Below, one piece after another: positions 1 to 52,748 of a DNA stretch of 64,000 bases. Position 1 is the first letter of the stretch; each line of letters opens with the position of its first letter. The position numbers were made by a program, and so were the translations under genes. The stretch comes from Candidatus Gastranaerophilales bacterium (GTDB taxonomy: Bacteria; Cyanobacteriota; Vampirovibrionia; Gastranaerophilales; Gastranaerophilaceae). The notes beneath the pieces were generated by a model. The model did not search any database, was not told where the DNA came from, and saw only the letters and a list, made by a program, of their open reading frames with translations. The stretch is taken from assembly GCA_944324345.1 (NCBI GenBank), contig CALUVT010000004.1, forward strand, positions 116,246-180,245. The letters are read 5' to 3'.

Positions 1-210
1 AAATTGTCTGGGCTGGAATCTTTATTATTGCAAGGATTTCCTAAAAAGTACGTGATGAAGGCAATGAATCTGACAAATTCTAAATTATTGGCTCAAACAG
101 GTAATGCAATGACAGTTAGTGTTATTCGTGCTATAGGAGAAAATTTAGTCAATTATATAGAAGAGGATACAAAAAATGAATTTAGTCAAAAAAGGATCTC
201 AAACTGCTAG
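1..210 (+). CDS. DNA (cytosine-5)-methyltransferase, C-terminal fragment (5' part outside window)
   Basis: Frame open from base 1. The tail contains LQGFP and TGNAMTVSV (GNAxxV, motif X), typical of C5 MTases. Overlaps the next gene by 35 nt. Confidence 0.8.
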   Translation, partial: KLSGLESLLLQGFPKKYVMKAMNLTNSKLLAQTGNAMTVSVIRAIGENLVNYIEEDTKNEFSQKRISNC

Positions 211-925
211 AGATGGATTTAAAAATGAACAAAATATATGTGACAAATTTAATAATTGGCAATTTGACAATGAGGCTAAGCAATGGCTGACAATCATGCA
301 ATATAACATAAATGAAATTGAATATGTCAGAGCAGTTGTATTGCATGGTTACAAGGCCGATATAAATTTACAGGTACAGATAAAATTAAAGTCCGCAGTT
401 GACGTAGAAAATATACAGGTAAAACTAGTCTCAAATCAAAAGGGATTTAATCAAGTAGATAAACGTTGGTTATCACATTATAAAGAAATGTGGAATATGC
501 CTGATAGTGTCTATCATTTGTTAAAATATTATACTGGGGAAACTGCCCCTTATAGGCAAGATATAAGAGATCCCCGTAGAATGTTCATAGATGAATTTAC
601 AAAGGAAGAGCAAGAGCTATTATTAAACTGGTTTTCAAATAACAAAACATTAATTTTAAGTGATATTATTAAGGGTCGAGGGCAATTTAGTGCGGAATGG
701 ATTTTAGTAGCACAAAAACTAGATAATAACGCTCGTTGGATATTAGTAAATATTAATCAAGCTCTACAACATTATTCATCTGGCAATGTTAGAATTAGTC
801 CTAAAGGTTCAATATATATTGGCAATGTAACTATGCAAAGAAAAGGTGGAGATGGCGGAAGAGAAACTGCAAAGATGTTACAATTTAAATTAGACCCAAC
901 TCAATTATTTGAACGTTTTTCTTAG
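176..925 (+). CDS. Type II restriction endonuclease, HinP1I/MspI-like (putative)
   Basis: 249-aa ORF overlapping the MTase 3' end. Residues D62-X18-Q81-V-K83 fit the (S/T)D-X18-Q-X-K active-site spacing I recall for HinP1I; size is also similar. Not verified by alignment. Confidence 0.7.
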   Translation: MNLVKKGSQTARDGFKNEQNICDKFNNWQFDNEAKQWLTIMQYNINEIEYVRAVVLHGYKADINLQVQIKLKSAVDVENIQVKLVSNQKGFNQVDKRWLSHYKEMWNMPDSVYHLLKYYTGETAPYRQDIRDPRRMFIDEFTKEEQELLLNWFSNNKTLILSDIIKGRGQFSAEWILVAQKLDNNARWILVNINQALQHYSSGNVRISPKGSIYIGNVTMQRKGGDGGRETAKMLQFKLDPTQLFERFS

Positions 926-1414: not shown

Positions 1415-1445
1415 AAAGGAGCTTTTTTTAAAGCTCCTTTTTGTT
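1415..1445. terminator. Bidirectional rho-independent terminator between convergent genes
   Basis: Perfect inverted repeat AAAGGAGCTTT / AAAGCTCCTTT (1415-1425 / 1430-1440), flanked by A-run and T-run. Confidence 0.7.
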
Positions 1446-2973
1446 ATTTATTGGGATTTACAAAACCTACAGATTTTCTTGATACATTGTTTTTTCCTGA
1501 CAAAAATTCACTCATTGCTGTTTGAAAATCCTCGTATGACAAACGTAAATTTTCCATATCCGATTGAGTAAAAGTTCCATTTTCCATTTTTTCATATATA
1601 CCAGCTCTTTCAAAAGCATGTTCATTGGCTCCATTTACAATATATGCAATATCTGCACCTGTTGCTTGCATATTCAGAAGTTCATCGGCAACTAAATCTT
1701 TTGGAAAATCTTTGTCCAACGCTTTATTTTTTGTGTGTATATCAAAAATTTTCAACACAGCATCTTTTGTATTAGGAGCTTTTACCTCAATATGCTTTCC
1801 AAAACGCCCCGAACGAGTGATGGCACTGTCAAGAATATCAAGTCTGTTAGTTGCTGTAATAACAAATATGTCATCACCATTCTTTTCAACATCACTCATC
1901 AATGTCAAAAGCTGGTTTACAACTTTATCTCCATAAACATCCATACCGCCTCTTTTCTTTGCTACGGCATCAAATTCATCTATAAAGATAATGGCAGGTT
2001 GATTTTCTCTTGCAGTATCAAAAAGCTTACGCCAATTCTCTTCAGAAGCTCCAACCCACTTGGATTCCATTTCTAAGCCATTCAACTTTATAAAGGAGGC
2101 GTTTGTTTCGTTTGCTAAAGCCTGAGCAATAAGAGTCTTGCCGGTTCCAGGAGGACCGTACATTATGTAACCGTGGTTCACTGTAGTATTTCTGTAAGCT
2201 TCAGGGTATTTTATAGGATAAATAATTCCCTTCTTTAATGAGTCTATAACACTATCCTGACCGCCAACATCGGCAAAAGAAAGTTTTTTACCCTTACCTG
2301 CAAATGTTTGCAAAATTGAATGGATTGATTTTTGGTTTTGACGTTTAATTACAGGTTCAACTTCCTTTGAAAAGTCAAACATTTTTGCAAATATTTTTCT
2401 ATGCATACTTAAATCAGTCAATGGTTGTTCTTTTATACTGAGTGTAGTATCACCAAAATTCAAAACATCCCCCGTTTCAAGATAAAAACTATCTCCTGAG
2501 TTCATTGTATATTCGGATTTGCCACTTTTTAAAACAAATGAAAACTTGTTCGGATTGTACGCTTCCAATTCGTTGCTGTGATTTTTATAAAGAGCAAGAG
2601 AAGCTTTTAAGTTATCATCTTCAATATAAAAGAGTCTTTTTATAATACTATGGAAAGAACCGCTTAATTCTTTCAAACTCTTTTGGGCAGACATTAAAGT
2701 TTCATCAACAACAACAACATCTCCTTGTTTTAATATCTGAAGAATAGATGATAAACGATCTTCCAGAGGAATTTTTTTGGCTAAAGAAAGAGCACTGGAC
2801 TGAAGTCCGGTAAAATTTACACCGGAATAGTATCTGTAATTTGGCAATTTATCTATCTGCTTTTGTTTGGGCGAGATAGTTGCAGTTAAATTTGGGGCAA
2901 CATTTTTTTTAAGTTGCAGGTTTTTATTAGTGTACGGGGTACAATAATAATTTTGAACAGGGTTGATTCTCAT
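1444..2973 (-). CDS. AAA+ ATPase (CDC48/FtsH-type single AAA module) with unknown N-terminal region of about 250 aa
   Basis: Walker A GPPGTGKT, Walker B IIFIDEFD, second region of homology ATNRLDILDSAITRSGRF. Start moved to ATG 2973 (MRINPVQNYY): SD AAGGAGG lies 9 nt upstream, whereas the track GTG 2979 is only 3 nt from the SD. Confidence 0.85.
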   Translation of the reverse strand: MRINPVQNYYCTPYTNKNLQLKKNVAPNLTATISPKQKQIDKLPNYRYYSGVNFTGLQSSALSLAKKIPLEDRLSSILQILKQGDVVVVDETLMSAQKSLKELSGSFHSIIKRLFYIEDDNLKASLALYKNHSNELEAYNPNKFSFVLKSGKSEYTMNSGDSFYLETGDVLNFGDTTLSIKEQPLTDLSMHRKIFAKMFDFSKEVEPVIKRQNQKSIHSILQTFAGKGKKLSFADVGGQDSVIDSLKKGIIYPIKYPEAYRNTTVNHGYIMYGPPGTGKTLIAQALANETNASFIKLNGLEMESKWVGASEENWRKLFDTARENQPAIIFIDEFDAVAKKRGGMDVYGDKVVNQLLTLMSDVEKNGDDIFVITATNRLDILDSAITRSGRFGKHIEVKAPNTKDAVLKIFDIHTKNKALDKDFPKDLVADELLNMQATGADIAYIVNGANEHAFERAGIYEKMENGTFTQSDMENLRLSYEDFQTAMSEFLSGKNNVSRKSVGFVNPNK

Positions 2974-30163: not shown

Positions 30164-30598
30164 TTAACCTATATCAGAAAACTTGTCAGAAGCTTTTTGA
30201 ATAAATTCTTCAATATTTTTACAAGTCTGTTCATCTTCCAACAATTTCAATATATCATATTTAGAACCGTATTCTAAAACAACGGAATAATTGCTTAAAT
30301 TGTCTGAAGAATTAGCTTTTATCCTCAATTCTCTTTCTTTTGGTCTTTCTTTGCCAAGAACGGAAGGATGGATGGATATTGTAATATCTTTTATGCCTAG
30401 GTTTTTGTCAGAATTTTTAAAATTTGTCTTTACAACCCTAAAATCACCATATTCAGGAACTGCACGTTCTGATTCAGTGTATAATTTTTTTAACGCTTCA
30501 ACTATCTGTTCCGCGTTATTTTGTAGTTTTTTCTCCTGTTTTGAAAAAACCGTTTTTACTAATCTTTTATTCATAACTTCTTCTGTCGATTTTATCAT
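30164..30598 (-). CDS. Hypothetical protein (144 aa), immediately downstream of the RSH-like gene
   Basis: ORF begins 27 nt after the stop of the 474-aa gene, same strand. No recognisable domain. Confidence 0.45.
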   Translation of the reverse strand: MIKSTEEVMNKRLVKTVFSKQEKKLQNNAEQIVEALKKLYTESERAVPEYGDFRVVKTNFKNSDKNLGIKDITISIHPSVLGKERPKERELRIKANSSDNLSNYSVVLEYGSKYDILKLLEDEQTCKNIEEFIQKASDKFSDIG

Positions 30599-30625
30599 AT
30601 TACCCCCATTATTTTAATGTAATTT

Positions 30626-32050
30626 TTAATTTTTTACAACCTGATTAGTTTTAATTTTTATATTTTGAGCTTTGTTGTGTATTTTTTCTAAGTTTTCAAA
30701 ACTTAAGATTGAATAATCTCTTAATCTCTTTGGAAGATCAGGGAGCTTAAAATCCCCGGGGACTTCTCCTAACTCGTACTTTCTTATATAGTTGTAGCAA
30801 TCTCGAATATATTTATCATAAAGTTTATTGAGCCCGTTTCGTTTTAATTTTGTTGTTGCATCTTGAACAGGTGCAAAGAGTTGTTCAAGTTCAGGGATAT
30901 TCTTGCTTATGTTTTTCCCCATTCTTATATCGTATGGAATATGTTCTATCTCTGCATATTTCATCATCAAGTTCCCTCGAATCTGCAATTCCCCGAGTGC
31001 TCCATTTGCATAGCGTAAATTCATTTGGGTTGTGACATAGCCTGATTCACTCAAACATTTGACTGTTTCTAAGTTTTCTATTTTCATGTGAACTCTGGCT
31101 GCTGATTTTCTTATCTGTTCAAAATGCTTTTCTGTGAAGTAACGTTTTGAACCGTTCGCATAATTACTTAATTCCTGAACATTTATCTTTCCGTGTTCTA
31201 TTGCATCGCATAAATTATCAACTATTTTTTGAATTCCTGAAGGAGAGATATCATCAAGGACAATTCTTGTTCCAACAAGATCGGTAATTTGACCTTTTGC
31301 ATCATCAATGTTTTTTATGTCTATACCTTTTTTTAAAACTTTTTTCATTAATTTATCATAAATTGATTCCGCACTCTTTCCCCTCACCTGAGGCATGACG
31401 CCGAAAATGTTATATATCTGTTCTCCTGCAGAACCGGCTTCAAAACCCACGATATTACCCGATTTGTCTTTAATAACGCCTGCAGCCTTTTGAGCTTCCT
31501 TCTCAAGCTGAACAGCACAAGAATACAAATCATCCTTGACTAAAAAACATTTTTCTATATTTTCGCGGTTTTTGATAATATCATCAGACGTATCAAACAG
31601 CCCCAGAATTTTTTTATAATATGCTGAATCAAAATGATTAAAGTTTTTTTCAATGGTAACTATTTTATGGTAAGTGTCTTTGTCTAAAGTACTTAAAAAC
31701 CTCTCAAGCGATTGTCCTGTAAAAGAACCATCGGAATTGCGAGTAATGTAGCCCAATTTTTCCCCACCTGAAAGCAGTTCCTGAAAATTTTCTTGGGCTT
31801 GTTTAGGCAGATAATTATATAATTTTAAAGCTGTTTTTTTATCAAGCTTAGTGGAGGATATAATTTGTGTTAAATTCTCTCTTGCAGCCTTCAATTTGAC
31901 AACATCAGACAATACATCAGGGGAAAAATTACTTTGTATTGGGTTTGATTTAAACGACAAAACTCTGTTTGTGTGAGGTTTTTTACTCTTTAACACAAAC
32001 TTGCCAAATTTATTTACTACTATTTTTGATATCGTAAAAAAATTAGCCAT
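30626..32050 (-). CDS. RelA/SpoT-homolog (RSH) synthetase-like nucleotide pyrophosphokinase domain protein with unknown N-terminal region of about 220 aa
   Basis: Syn1 VRGKSAESIYDKLMKK, Syn2 ITDLVGTRIVLDD, Syn3-like SGYVTTQ, Syn4 GELQIRGNLMMKYAEIEH, Syn5-like IPYD. Recognised by eye and needs an HMM search. Confidence 0.6.
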   Translation of the reverse strand: MANFFTISKIVVNKFGKFVLKSKKPHTNRVLSFKSNPIQSNFSPDVLSDVVKLKAARENLTQIISSTKLDKKTALKLYNYLPKQAQENFQELLSGGEKLGYITRNSDGSFTGQSLERFLSTLDKDTYHKIVTIEKNFNHFDSAYYKKILGLFDTSDDIIKNRENIEKCFLVKDDLYSCAVQLEKEAQKAAGVIKDKSGNIVGFEAGSAGEQIYNIFGVMPQVRGKSAESIYDKLMKKVLKKGIDIKNIDDAKGQITDLVGTRIVLDDISPSGIQKIVDNLCDAIEHGKINVQELSNYANGSKRYFTEKHFEQIRKSAARVHMKIENLETVKCLSESGYVTTQMNLRYANGALGELQIRGNLMMKYAEIEHIPYDIRMGKNISKNIPELEQLFAPVQDATTKLKRNGLNKLYDKYIRDCYNYIRKYELGEVPGDFKLPDLPKRLRDYSILSFENLEKIHNKAQNIKIKTNQVVKN

Positions 32051-32572: not shown

Positions 32573-33685
32573 TTAATCCACATGAGAAATTATACCGTTT
32601 GACGCGTTTTTATCAATTTCAATAACATGTCTTATTATTGTATGTGCCATCAAAAGCATATAAGGATTAATTTCATTTGTATTAGACATATTAATCTTTG
32701 CTTGAGGTTTTTCTTGTTTTGTATTAACGGTTGTCTGTTTTGAAGTTTCAAAAGAAAGTACTGATGCCATAGAGTAATGTTTTTCATCACCCTCAATTCT
32801 TCTGCCCAATTCCTCTTTTGGGAATTCTTTCACACACTCAATATTTACGTGCACAGAGTTTGAACTTTCTAAAATTAAAGTTGAAATTACATCCCCAAAA
32901 TTTAATGTCGAGACAGTTATTACAAGAATACTATCAGCTCCATCGCTTTTCTCACCCGCTTCAATATCAAGGTCAAACCCCACACCTTCCTGCAGTGGAA
33001 GCCAAGGGAGATATAACAAAAGTAACATCTTCATTGTCTGAGCGGAATCATTTTGAGAAGCCGCTGCGATGCTTGCATTAATTAATTTTGCAGTATCCTT
33101 CATTTGGGATAAATCTGTAATTCCGAGTTTTGCGGAATTTGCCATTGCGGTGATTAATTTTGCTACAGCATCTTTCCCGTTAGACTGAATCATTGCCGCA
33201 ACTTGAGAAAGATTTATCAAACCGGAAGAAGAAATTGCCAGATTTTTTATCGAATTTTGAAGTTGGTTTAATATAGCTTTATTCCCTGTCAAAAGCATGT
33301 TTTGTGCCTCTGTTAAAGACAATCCCTGAAGTTGAGCTAAAATTTGTGCCTGGGTTTGAGATAAGGAATTCCTTTGCATAGCATATTGATTTGAAAATCT
33401 TTGATTAAACTGTGCCAGAGTAATGTTTTTTTGAAGTATGTATATTAATTCATTCAAATTTTTAGGTAAATTCATCATCTCTTTCACATAAACGGACTGG
33501 TCAACAGATGCCATATTAGACATTTGTACGGGAGTAGAGTTTACTGTGGGAGTTTGCGATGCAGAAGAGGTTGGTGCTGCAAAAGAAGTTTGGGCAGGAG
33601 CTTTTGCAGACGGTTGTTTCTGAGTATTCAACGCCTGATAGTTCACAAACTTTGAAATTAAATAACCCAAATTTAAATCTGCCAT
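32573..33685 (-). CDS. Hypothetical Q/S/T/N-rich protein (370 aa)
   Basis: Long ORF with low-complexity N-terminal third. The N-terminus resembles that of the 474-aa RSH-like protein (MA[DN]..ISK[FI]V.N, SF, P[VI]Q.SN). Confidence 0.5.
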   Translation of the reverse strand: MADLNLGYLISKFVNYQALNTQKQPSAKAPAQTSFAAPTSSASQTPTVNSTPVQMSNMASVDQSVYVKEMMNLPKNLNELIYILQKNITLAQFNQRFSNQYAMQRNSLSQTQAQILAQLQGLSLTEAQNMLLTGNKAILNQLQNSIKNLAISSSGLINLSQVAAMIQSNGKDAVAKLITAMANSAKLGITDLSQMKDTAKLINASIAAASQNDSAQTMKMLLLLYLPWLPLQEGVGFDLDIEAGEKSDGADSILVITVSTLNFGDVISTLILESSNSVHVNIECVKEFPKEELGRRIEGDEKHYSMASVLSFETSKQTTVNTKQEKPQAKINMSNTNEINPYMLLMAHTIIRHVIEIDKNASNGIISHVD

Positions 33686-47828: not shown

Positions 47829-49424
47829 TTATTTTAATATGACTTCTGGATGCACTGCCAAAGACAGTTCAAATGCATCATCAAGAGCCTTGTTCACAAT
47901 GTCAATCAGCTCCTGACATCTGGTTTTTACTGCATAAGCTGCAAGGGCAATATAATCATCCTGAGCTTCCGGGGTAGATTGAATCCTATATTTTTGCCCA
48001 GACACGCCAACATTATTCCTAACTGTGTATACTGCGTATTCTAAAAGCTCTTTGTACTCATTACGGGGGTATTTTTTTAGATCTTTTAATGCTCCTATAA
48101 TATTAAAAACAGCAATTTGATATGTATCTGCCATTACATTATTTAATCCTTTTATATTTGTGTTTGCTGTAAATATTTCAGACGATTTTGGATCAATTGA
48201 ACTTTTTTGGGTATAGGGATTAAACATTGTATCACTTTTTAGTGCACCAGGTTCTAATCCTAATTTTGCTTCCACAAATCTTGTCAATTGCGTCGGAACC
48301 GTTCTTAAAGCCAAGAAAGTTTCATTTTCTTCCTTAATTTTTTTCCAAGCATATTTCATGTTTTTAGAAAAAGCCTTCTTTGCCCAATCATTTTCTGCCC
48401 AGAATAATTTCATTGCATGCATCTGCTCTTTATCTAATTTTTCCGGAGAAGACTCTACATTAAATTCTTTAATCTTTCTACCTTTCAAAAATTTTGACAA
48501 CGCATATTTTATCCTGTCAGCACCAAAAATATTCCAAGCTTTTTTCAAAACTCTGGTAAGCTCCTCTGCCTTATCAGGGTTGTTTTTGTAGAACTCTTTT
48601 TGTCTTTCTGACATTTCATAAATTCTTTCAGGATTTTCTTCGTAATAACGTTTCAACCCTTCAGAAATTCTTTTTTTGTGTTCAGCAGACAAAGGACCAC
48701 GTTTTATATAAACAGGTTCACCAGTTTCTACCTGAGCCTTTCTATCCAAAGCTATTGCGCGTTTCTCAACCATTTCACGTGTCAAACGTTCATTGTACTC
48801 AGGATCTGAAAATTTCAATATGTGACCATAATCCCTACTTGCAACAGGAATGTGTAATTTTTTCATTGTATGATGCAAATCTTGTCCATCTGCATATCTT
48901 TTTAAATCATTTAGGGAAAAACCTTCTCCCCAATATAGTTTTATCAATTGAACGGTCAAATCTTCATCATTATCAAAATACTCAAGCTCCCCTTTACGAA
49001 ATTTGTCTACGATAGAACCTTTAGCAAAAACTACATCATCTAAGGGTATAGCTTCACCAAATTCGGGGAATTTCTTTTTTATCTCGTCAAGTGTAAAGCA
49101 ATCTTTTAAAGCTGCAAAATATCTTTTATGAACGCTAATTAAAGTTTCCTTTGCTTTATTACCTTCTTCCAAGACCATCCCAGCCCACTCTCTTATATTT
49201 GGCGGATATATTGATGAATTTTTTTGGGCTAACTTATCCAGTTGTTTAATTGTTTGTGCCAAATCTAAGCTGTAACCGCCTGTAAAAGCCAAATACTGTG
49301 CGGTTGTCGGGAGTTGTGTATTTGATGCTACAGGCTTTTGTTCAGATTTAGCAGGTGTAGATGTATATTTATAGGTATTTAGTTTTGGGGTAATATTATA
49401 ATTTTGTATATTATTGATTTTCAT
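47829..49424 (-). CDS. Hypothetical protein (531 aa) inserted between fabZ and lpxA
   Basis: Long uninterrupted ORF with SD GGAG. N-terminus MKINNIQNYNITP...LAFTGGYSLDLAQTI is shared with the AAA+ ATPase. No enzymatic domain recognised. Confidence 0.6.
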   Translation of the reverse strand: MKINNIQNYNITPKLNTYKYTSTPAKSEQKPVASNTQLPTTAQYLAFTGGYSLDLAQTIKQLDKLAQKNSSIYPPNIREWAGMVLEEGNKAKETLISVHKRYFAALKDCFTLDEIKKKFPEFGEAIPLDDVVFAKGSIVDKFRKGELEYFDNDEDLTVQLIKLYWGEGFSLNDLKRYADGQDLHHTMKKLHIPVASRDYGHILKFSDPEYNERLTREMVEKRAIALDRKAQVETGEPVYIKRGPLSAEHKKRISEGLKRYYEENPERIYEMSERQKEFYKNNPDKAEELTRVLKKAWNIFGADRIKYALSKFLKGRKIKEFNVESSPEKLDKEQMHAMKLFWAENDWAKKAFSKNMKYAWKKIKEENETFLALRTVPTQLTRFVEAKLGLEPGALKSDTMFNPYTQKSSIDPKSSEIFTANTNIKGLNNVMADTYQIAVFNIIGALKDLKKYPRNEYKELLEYAVYTVRNNVGVSGQKYRIQSTPEAQDDYIALAAYAVKTRCQELIDIVNKALDDAFELSLAVHPEVILK

Positions 49425-52391: not shown

Positions 52392-52471
52392 ATCCGCTAA
52401 CTCGTATTCTACGTCTTAATTTTAGCAAAAACATTCTTAAAAATCTTTAAAAGTTACCTTTTGTTAAGCAA

Positions 52472-52497
52472 CAATAAAGCCCGCTTATGCGGGCTTT
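52472..52497 (-). terminator. GC-rich hairpin terminator
   Basis: AAAGCCCGC-TTAT-GCGGGCTTT. On the minus strand it is followed by TTTATTGTT. Confidence 0.65.
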
Positions 52498-52505
52498 GTA
52501 CAACT

Positions 52506-52643
52506 TTAAGCAATCTGCAAGGTCTCATCCAAATAATCACAGGATAATCTTGGCATATCCACTTCTATTTTTTTTGATTTTTGAGAATGTAAAACCTTTT
52601 TAGTTTTTGCTTCCTGCTCCTTTTTTACTTCCAATTTTTCCAT
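52506..52643 (-). CDS. Unannotated small ORF (45 aa, K/E-rich)
   Basis: Hand translation gives MEKLEVKKEQEAKTKKVLHSQKSKKIEVDMPRLSCDYLDETLQIA. GGGGGA lies about 10 nt upstream of the ATG. Terminator follows directly. Below the size cutoff of the ORF track. Confidence 0.3.
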   Translation of the reverse strand: MEKLEVKKEQEAKTKKVLHSQKSKKIEVDMPRLSCDYLDETLQIA

Positions 52644-52748
52644 AACAACGTATCCCCCACTTTTCCATCTAATTTTATAAAAACATTTTATGTGGAATAT
52701 TTGCTCAACCTAAGGGACATGTTAACTTTTGTTAATTATAGATATTTT

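Follow-up and report, generated by a model that had tools for sequence, protein, structure and literature searches.

In a 64,000-nucleotide stretch of contig CALUVT010000004.1 from a Candidatus Gastranaerophilales bacterium (the whole of which is called the window hereafter), an AAA+ ATPase and a protein of 531 residues start with a common N-terminal peptide module. The module is largely confined to Gastranaerophilales, occurs only at residue 1, fronts protein bodies that are unrelated to each other and is under selection at the protein level. Its best explanation is that of a lineage-specific N-terminal recognition signal, and it is very likely that one shared receptor reads it. Gastranaerophilales are uncultured, non-photosynthetic gut relatives of cyanobacteria (Melainabacteria/Vampirovibrionia) that are frequent in non-industrialised human populations and in animals, and orphans make up a large share of their genes. 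In the window proteins the module is composed of three parts, namely a head with the pattern M-[KR]-I-N-x-[IV]-Q-N-Y, an acid-poor spacer of ~40 residues, and the tripeptide F-T-G together with a conserved stretch.

The module of the AAA+ ATPase and the 531-residue protein

The two carriers in the window and the parts of their modules are the following.

1444..2973, minus strand: gene of a 509-residue AAA+ ATPase with the N-terminal module (Pfam AAA at residues 270-398, E 3e-42)
2947..2973, minus strand: AAA+ head MRINPVQNY, residues 1-9
2821..2946, minus strand: AAA+ variable spacer, residues 10-51, rich in N, T, P, K and Q and nearly free of acidic residues
2737..2820, minus strand: AAA+ second motif VNFTG (residues 52-56, nucleotides 2806-2820), then LQSSALSLAKKIPLEDRLSSILQ
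47829..49424, minus strand: gene of the 531-residue protein with the module, located between fabZ and lpxA
49398..49424, minus strand: head MKINNIQNY of the 531-residue protein, residues 1-9
49314..49397, minus strand: its spacer, residues 10-37, hypervariable (~1 bit per column) and disordered in the structural model
49221..49313, minus strand: its second motif LPTTAQYLAFTGG, residues 38-50, then YSLDLAQTIKQLDKLAQK, nearly invariant (2.5-4.5 bits per column)

The AAA+ gene starts at the ATG at 2973 and not at the GTG at 2979, and an AGGAGG located 9 nucleotides upstream is kept in the orthologs. Across the orthologs used for comparison (L028, L033, L198-L202, P0001, P0162 and P0192), conservation of the spacer is poor while the head and FTG are invariant, the heads reading MRINPVQNY, MRISSVQNY, MKISSVQNY or MRILPVQNY and the site of VNFTG reading [IV][NS]F[TRK]G. 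In a set of 57 distinct N-termini from the 531-residue family, M1 never varies, 54 have I3, all have I or V at position 6, 51 have Q or T at position 7 and 45 have P or N at position 8. Measured from residue 10, the distance of the F stays within 33-41 residues in this family, and in the window protein the F belongs to LAFTGG (residues 45-50, nucleotides 49275-49292).

The first-pass annotation of this DNA had attributed one bipartite motif to four proteins, the other two being an RSH-like protein and a protein of 370 residues. The translations that it quoted are correct and all four proteins are encoded on the minus strand. Its observation holds for half of the set, since the AAA+ and 531-residue proteins share the module according to profile alignment, a shuffle test and conservation in orthologs, while membership of the other two is unsupported. 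Local alignment of the first 79 residues of the AAA+ and 531-residue proteins gave z = 4.3, a score reached by 5 of 2000 shuffles. Alignment of the two ortholog sets with hhalign gave a probability of 80% and an E value of 1.4e-5 over columns 1-76 against 1-67, and by the same method the AAA+ second-motif segment (2737..2820) matches FTGGYSLDLAQTIKQLDKLA of the 531-residue family. Head and FTG are retained in all orthologs of both proteins that were seen. A six-frame translation of the window contains only three occurrences of the string N[PN][IV]Q[NS], a count made post hoc. A further family with an unrelated body of 143 residues (L031) could be aligned as well: the LPTTAQYLAFTGG/YSLDLAQTIKQLDKLAQK segment of the 531-residue family aligns with its KPKASQYLATLGQKAL, and the hhalign comparison of both N-termini (probability 84%, E 7.6e-6) covers both the head and a segment reading QYLAxxG, 19 residues of the spacer being deleted. 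These alignments indicate that at least three families share a homologous module, and that the module has moved between genes.

The body of the 531-residue protein had no match in Pfam, NCBIfam or PDB sequences at the thresholds used, Foldseek with its model against PDB returned nothing at E <= 0.001, and among its 412 homologs the 120 listed are all unnamed or hypothetical proteins. Its nearest relatives, with 47-74% identity, come from metagenome-assembled genomes (MAGs) labelled Candidatus Gastranaerophilales. The AlphaFold2 model, built from 61 homologs, has a mean predicted local distance difference test (pLDDT) score of 82. Residues 1-39 are non-helical in it with pLDDT <50, the mean per 10-residue block is at least 80 over residues 51-210 and drops to 73 and 79 in the blocks of residues 211-230, and a confident all-alpha fold is predicted to start around FTGG. 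By eye, the stretch RGPLSAEHKKRISEGLKRYY of this protein resembles a NUMOD3-type DNA-binding motif. As for the AAA+ protein, its AlphaFold2 model from two sequences reached a mean pLDDT of 34, a word-index protein search with the N-terminal 222 residues returned one fragment, and PADLOC gave generic AAA matches only. Residues ~140-185 (VLKSGKSEYTMNSGDSFYLETGDVLNFGDTTLSI), between the module and the ATPase domain, have by eye the look of an FHA-type beta domain; the segment has no Pfam match, and the AlphaFold model is too poor to judge its fold.

The positions in the two proteins that do not belong to the set are given here.

30626-32050, minus strand: gene of the RSH-like protein (RelA_SpoT domain, E 5.5e-7)
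31685..31957, minus strand: strings of the RSH-like protein taken for the two motifs, membership unsupported
32573-33685, minus strand: gene of the 370-residue protein
33515..33586, minus strand: strings SFAAP and TPVQMSN of the 370-residue protein, membership unsupported

In the RSH-like protein the strings are SFKSNPIQSNF (residues 32-42) and GSFTGQSLERFLSTL (residues 108-122). They are lost in a 63%-identical ortholog (L197), where they become IFVSKPDVPVKNI and GSVTGKSLERFL, with V in place of the F of FTG. Its alignments do not clearly beat shuffled sequences, the best pairing, with the AAA+ protein, giving z = 1.9 and a score reached by 110 of 2000 shuffles, as compared with 1262 of 2000 against the 531-residue protein and 444 of 2000 against the 370-residue one. 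Orthologs also change the strings of the 370-residue protein: TPVQMSN, which extends into the conserved body, reads SAPQMGS and GIHQMNT in orthologs, and changes were seen in both L197 and L073. The alignment of this protein with the AAA+ protein falls under the shuffle mean, and none of its alignments shows a clear excess over shuffles. A PDB sequence search with the 370-residue protein returned nothing. The N-termini of these two proteins have a pattern of their own in common, MANFFTISKIV and MADLNLGYLISKF (window 32018-32050 and 33638-33685, minus strand), with MNFNISKIISGL in an ortholog, and an alternative upstream start of a 250-residue carrier introduced below reads MAKINLSCFHIS (L203 2312-2347, minus strand). 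This pattern may be a second or diverged type of head, the match being post hoc and not significant. In addition, the RSH-like protein and a 144-residue protein encoded downstream of it (window 30164-32050, minus strand) are kept as a pair in L197; the pair could be a small alarmone synthetase with its partner protein, and PADLOC returned no match for it.

Spread of the head and selection on the peptide

DNA able to encode M[KR]I[NT]x[IV]QNY was looked for with a degenerate pattern in 596 Gb comprising one genome per bacterial or archaeal species. There were 51 matches, 18 of them in MAGs labelled Gastranaerophilales or Gastranaerophilaceae or judged to be Gastranaerophilales-like. All 18 have an upstream in-frame stop within 32 codons and therefore stand at the start of an open reading frame (ORF), two of these ORFs being cut by the end of the locus, and the remaining matches are mostly short non-ORFs or internal to longer ORFs. 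The 10 matches in 2.9 million viral contigs are each followed by 31 codons at most. A scan of metagenomes gave 109 matches and five more families. Altogether, at least 18 unrelated protein families have the head at residue 1, with few occurrences outside MAGs of Gastranaerophilales type, and a looser version of the pattern had 0 matches when run over 236 kb of control loci that came from other taxa and were in several cases AT-rich. The idea of one module in front of unrelated bodies is consequently wider in scope than first proposed, as the pattern scans add at least 16 body types. In addition to the AAA+ and 531-residue families, the bodies include a GH77 4-alpha-glucanotransferase (L064), a HicA toxin, an EF-hand membrane protein, three other single-membrane-helix proteins and about ten small orphan families, and in four families (L036, L040, L074 and L132) the module is followed by a single membrane helix. 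BLAST between bodies was negative for the families compared, which did not include the five from metagenomes.

Two more carriers lie directly left of the window, in DNA taken from near-identical contigs:

left of the window: 120-residue carrier, N-terminus MHINSIQSNYQSNYQPNFKA...
left of the window: 250-residue carrier, MKISNIKVFNY...VRFTG

The body of the latter has no significant similarity to the other two window families. There are thus four carriers in ~82 kb of the window genome, and the right side of the window holds no additional one.

In its general form, the fixed nine-residue head is M-[KRQ]-I-[NST]-x-[IV]-[QT]-[NP]-[YF], with M-[KR]-I-[NT]-x-[IV]-Q-N-Y in the QNY lineage. The 531-residue superfamily shows variants such as MKIYSIIPY, MRITNIQPR, MQINTITPL, MKISSINNF and MHINPISLY, in which M1, a basic residue or Q at position 2, I3, I/V6, Q/T7 and P/N8 are the positions kept. 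A proline follows shortly after the head in both window proteins and in most families, and the pooled spacers consist of 19% N, 11% S, 11% T, 10% P, 10% K, 7% Y, 4% L and 2.4% D and E together. Two forms of the second motif can be distinguished. The long-spacer families have F-[TKR]-G at residues 47-54, whereas the compact ones have [NST]-P-x-F-x-[GA], 4-10 residues past the head (NPAFG, NTNFGA, SPNFNG, NPTFG). Of 16 independent families identified through the head alone, 10 contain F.?G within residues 10-40, compared with 52 of 482 control ORFs of their genomes (binomial P = 9e-7), and FTG within residues 40-65, found in 8 of 491 controls, is present in all three long-spacer families of the window genome.

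A hidden Markov model (HMM) of the module, with 72 columns because another profile barely detected other head families in local tests, was compared with 1.84 billion representative proteins. It matched 72 proteins at E <= 1e-3, 70 of which start at residue 1 (a few at residues 4-8), and the two internal matches are false positives in repeat proteins from unrelated organisms. The 26 matches of atypical length that were read all belong to the 531-residue superfamily or the AAA+ family, bar the two repeat proteins, and the other matches have 531-family lengths or are short fragments. The HMM search proposed along with the original observation hence agreed with it in the restriction to N-termini, and its matches carry two types of body. 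From this it follows that the full long module is limited to few families, and the widespread form is the head with a compact second motif. Synthetic head alignments retrieved only two fragments of the L031 family from the protein word-index database, in which, according to local tests, a nine-column head profile cannot reach E <= 10.

The codons of the head vary synonymously and the upstream DNA is not common to the families, which argues for selection on the peptide. An A/T-rich promoter-like motif upstream of several head genes was not enriched, and no Rfam family overlaps the DNA that encodes the head. QNY-type heads on other families were found only in genomes whose 531-residue ortholog has a QNY-like head, an association that is confounded by phylogeny.

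Three carriers deserve separate mention. The HicA-domain carrier (L076 2002-2735) has the head within a 35-residue N-terminal extension and adjoins a gene with an XRE-type helix-turn-helix and not HicB; a protein near it that starts with MGLAASQARLLSLT... had no Pfam match. A 42-codon ORF (L058 1924-2052) contains little beyond the module, MKINNIQNY...VISFGGILTKIP. Finally, a 166-residue protein in the MAG SI072_bin107 from a marine oxygen-minimum zone (L047 / L194) carries a perfect head and NPNFK, so that the module may reach beyond the Gastranaerophilales of the gut.

Candidate readers of the module

The anchoring at Met1, the selection at the protein level, the restriction to one lineage, the disordered tether and the unrelated soluble and membrane bodies together make a single shared reader highly probable. 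As the first-pass annotation had stated, the N-termini do not look like Sec, Tat or lipoprotein signals, and by eye they contain no hydrophobic core, RR motif or lipobox. No hydrophobic stretch was apparent in the first ~70-110 residues of the AAA+, 531-residue, GH77, HicA and small-family proteins, and RR is absent from all heads and spacers read. Other known leaders were also considered and rejected. Against a type IV prepilin leader, the residues after FTG are polar and there is no E5 and no hydrophobic helix. A double-glycine leader was discarded, as GG occurs in the 531-residue family only and the acidic/leucine pattern is absent as read; so was a microcompartment encapsulation peptide, given the non-helical, low-pLDDT residues 1-39 and the lack of shell genes in the loci seen. 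Prepilin-type genes (...AFTLAEVLITLGIIGV...) abound in these genomes, with ~2-3 per 100 kb (L004-L019, L040, L063, L076, L206 and L207), some as divergent pairs, and near head genes such genes (AFTLAE...) are at background frequency (3.2 vs 2.1 per 100 kb).

Two earlier suggestions found no support in the analysis. That the architecture is the one of polymorphic toxins is not borne out by the bodies, mostly orphans or housekeeping-type enzymes with HicA (L076) as the only toxin-like carrier; toxin-trafficking domains such as MIX, LXG, PAAR and Rhs gave no match at E <= 0.1 in Pfam and NCBIfam or at 0.001 in PADLOC. The likeness of the MRIN start to flagellin extends over four residues only, and tblastn with the flagellin N-terminus found nothing in the loci examined, where fragments of L27, L21, FlhB and FliP were equally without a match.

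The module fits no described family of signals, although it is of a familiar kind, that of short N-terminal peptides that serve sorting or recognition and sit on a flexible tether. Like the encapsulation peptides, it places a short N-terminal peptide and a poorly conserved flexible linker before diverse enzymes; those peptides are read by a shared cytoplasmic partner and form amphipathic helices of ~18 residues, whereas the head has nine residues, is followed by a proline within a few residues and is modelled as disordered. With ESPR (autotransporters), YSIRK and KxYKxGKxW it has in common a lineage-restricted conserved stretch at or near Met1, and in four families a hydrophobic segment follows. 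Unlike in those signals, most carriers (AAA+, 531-residue, GH77, HicA) are without a hydrophobic core by eye, which suggests that the module is independent of Sec. The type IX C-terminal sorting domains resemble it as a clade-specific tag on many unrelated and mostly orphan proteins, but they are folded C-terminal domains on Sec-exported proteins and not a short, non-Sec N-terminal peptide. The type III signals borne by chlamydial MalQ, GlgP and GlgX (PMC6717882) are comparable non-Sec N-terminal signals on cytoplasmic-type enzymes, including a 4-alpha-glucanotransferase as in L064. Those signals lack the consensus seen here, and Chlamydia is an intracellular pathogen with an injectisome, while Gastranaerophilales live by fermentation in the gut and possess a flagellar apparatus at most.

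A further close parallel is provided by the early flagellar substrates, in which small hydrophobic residues at positions 3-7 are combined with an FxxxPhi motif that lies 26 or more residues further downstream and docks on FlhB (PMC8983047). Both signals lie at the extreme N-terminus, with small hydrophobic residues, a downstream aromatic motif and, between these parts, a disordered spacer whose length matters. Small non-polar residues within positions 3-7 are present in all families, I3 and I/V6 being nearly invariant, and the long-spacer families, with F at residues 47-54, agree with the spacing of at least 26 residues. F...[ILVFYM] is weakly enriched, both in residues 10-40 (9/16 vs 27% of controls, P = 0.012) and in residues 10-60 (12/16 vs 50% of controls, P = 0.037), and the composition of the spacer resembles that of type III signals. 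The module differs from the flagellar signal in that its head is a defined sequence and not mere hydrophobicity, and in that the bodies are not flagellar parts.

By this analogy, the module might be an export signal for a flagellar-type secretion apparatus, a reading to which we assign a probability of roughly one in three. The disordered acid-poor spacer would tether the head to the second motif, and the likeliest reader would be a flagellar-type III export gate. The aromatic second motif might dock the carrier, for instance on FlhB as in early flagellar substrates; contact with the gate would follow, made by small hydrophobic residues (positions 3 and 6) of the free N-terminus, and the carrier could leave the cell without a Sec signal. 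About 25% of Gastranaerophilales genomes have full flagellar sets and the rest keep flhB, fliI and flgG (bioRxiv 10.64898/2026.04.24.720558; also PMC4040986), retained genes for which a role in secretion was suggested by the authors (bioRxiv 10.64898/2026.04.24.720558); this literature on the order makes export by the flagellar route more plausible. A bolder version, which we regard as rather unlikely, is that of an undescribed export route, with a flagellum-derived type III apparatus kept for secretion even in non-motile Gastranaerophilales; the GH77 enzyme, the AAA+ ATPase, the HicA-like RNase and dozens of orphans would then reach the gut environment or neighbouring cells.

Several points weigh against export. 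The window, ~18 kb beside it and the surroundings of carriers in the loci examined contained neither flagellar genes nor other genes for secretion. In the compact families the F is mostly at residues 13-17, only 4-10 residues past the head where the flagellar rule demands at least 26, and FTG agrees with FxxxPhi only sometimes, since F47 in FTGGY fits while F54 in FTGLQ and F50 in FTGDE do not. AAA+ ATPases, GH77 enzymes and HicA are normally cytoplasmic, and the single membrane helix after the module in four families would hold the head in the cytoplasm. Moreover, FTG is the first element of the modelled fold of the 531-residue protein and may thus be structural and not a docking site.

The main alternative is a cytoplasmic docking or degradation tag, whose head would bind a hub inside the cell, for example a scaffold, an AAA+ unfoldase or adaptor, or a landmark of the pole or the divisome. 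Such a tag would gather soluble and membrane proteins at one place or mark them for regulated turnover, none of them being exported. We consider it only slightly less probable than export. It accounts for the membrane proteins and the enzymes among the carriers no less well than export does: the AAA+, GH77 and HicA bodies are typical of the cytoplasm, the module would be the sole cytoplasmic part of the four single-helix families, and secretion genes are absent from the window, its flanks and the loci examined. The slow drift of the head along the phylogeny with its pattern kept is also what would be expected of co-evolution with a partner. Nevertheless, ordinary docking motifs need no start at Met1, where every real head does start, the spacer composition and the two-part layout are more export-like, and no candidate hub was identified.

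An improbable third explanation is a pro-peptide, cut after an aromatic residue (F, then G, A or S) by a dedicated protease, with the carriers inactive until the cut. In Firmicutes, Prp trims the N-terminal extension of ribosomal protein L27 (MLKLNLQFF/ASKKG) and of some phage capsid proteins. The compact form, M-K-I-N-x-I-Q-N-Y ... P-x-F/G-x-K, is loosely like the L27 extension, with G, S or A and basic residues frequently coming after its F. Yet the match to the Prp motif is weak, gapped and partial, and the long-spacer form is predicted to have its F buried where the fold starts. With tblastn, the loci examined yielded no L27 gene, Prp itself not being among the queries.

A comparably low probability is given to the absence of any shared reader, the head reflecting either optimisation of translation starts in an AT-rich genome or a passive remnant spread by recombination. 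The codons of K, I, N and Y are rich in A/U and MK-type starts are common in low-GC genomes, and common descent explains part of the similarity among the three families with detectably homologous modules. This reading would leave unexplained, however, that Q7, N8/P8, Y9 and P-x-F-x-G are retained despite codon variation and that the head of the 531-residue family is conserved across lineages whose spacers have fully diverged, as well as the above-mentioned lack of matches in loci of other taxa and in Rfam. Chance resemblance of low-complexity N-termini applies to the RSH-like and 370-residue proteins, with shuffles as good as the real alignments and strings lost in orthologs, but for the core set it is set aside as highly improbable by the shuffle, profile, enrichment and taxon-restriction results.

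Genomic surroundings and biological meaning

The window has a G+C content of ~33% and contains lpxD-lpxC-fabZ-X-lpxA, ribBA, fab genes and further housekeeping genes. The gene of the 531-residue protein sits inside the lipid A cluster both in the window and in near-identical contigs, an order of genes that is kept in related MAGs. Some ~4-5 kb upstream of this gene, L004-L023 (e.g. L005 5808) encode a conserved protein of ~76 residues, which starts with M[KQ]I[ST]KLT[IL]TPL[AS]KGW and ends with ...RRIPKFLKGFVNPA; it was found in eight of the related MAG loci scanned and is missing from the corresponding position of the window (52392-52748). The left edge of the window (4-925, plus strand) holds the C-terminal end of a cytosine DNA methylase and, after it, a 249-residue restriction endonuclease of the HinP1I family (Pfam R-HINP1I), and the two form a type II restriction-modification pair.

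A tag that is defined by its sequence groups many Gastranaerophilales orphans into one functional set and predicts a single receptor for them. Were it a tag for docking or degradation, an organising hub specific to this lineage would come to light. If the module is indeed an export signal, it would explain why flagellar export genes are kept in non-motile members, it would define the secretome of the group, and it would represent a rare type III-like signal with a readable consensus.

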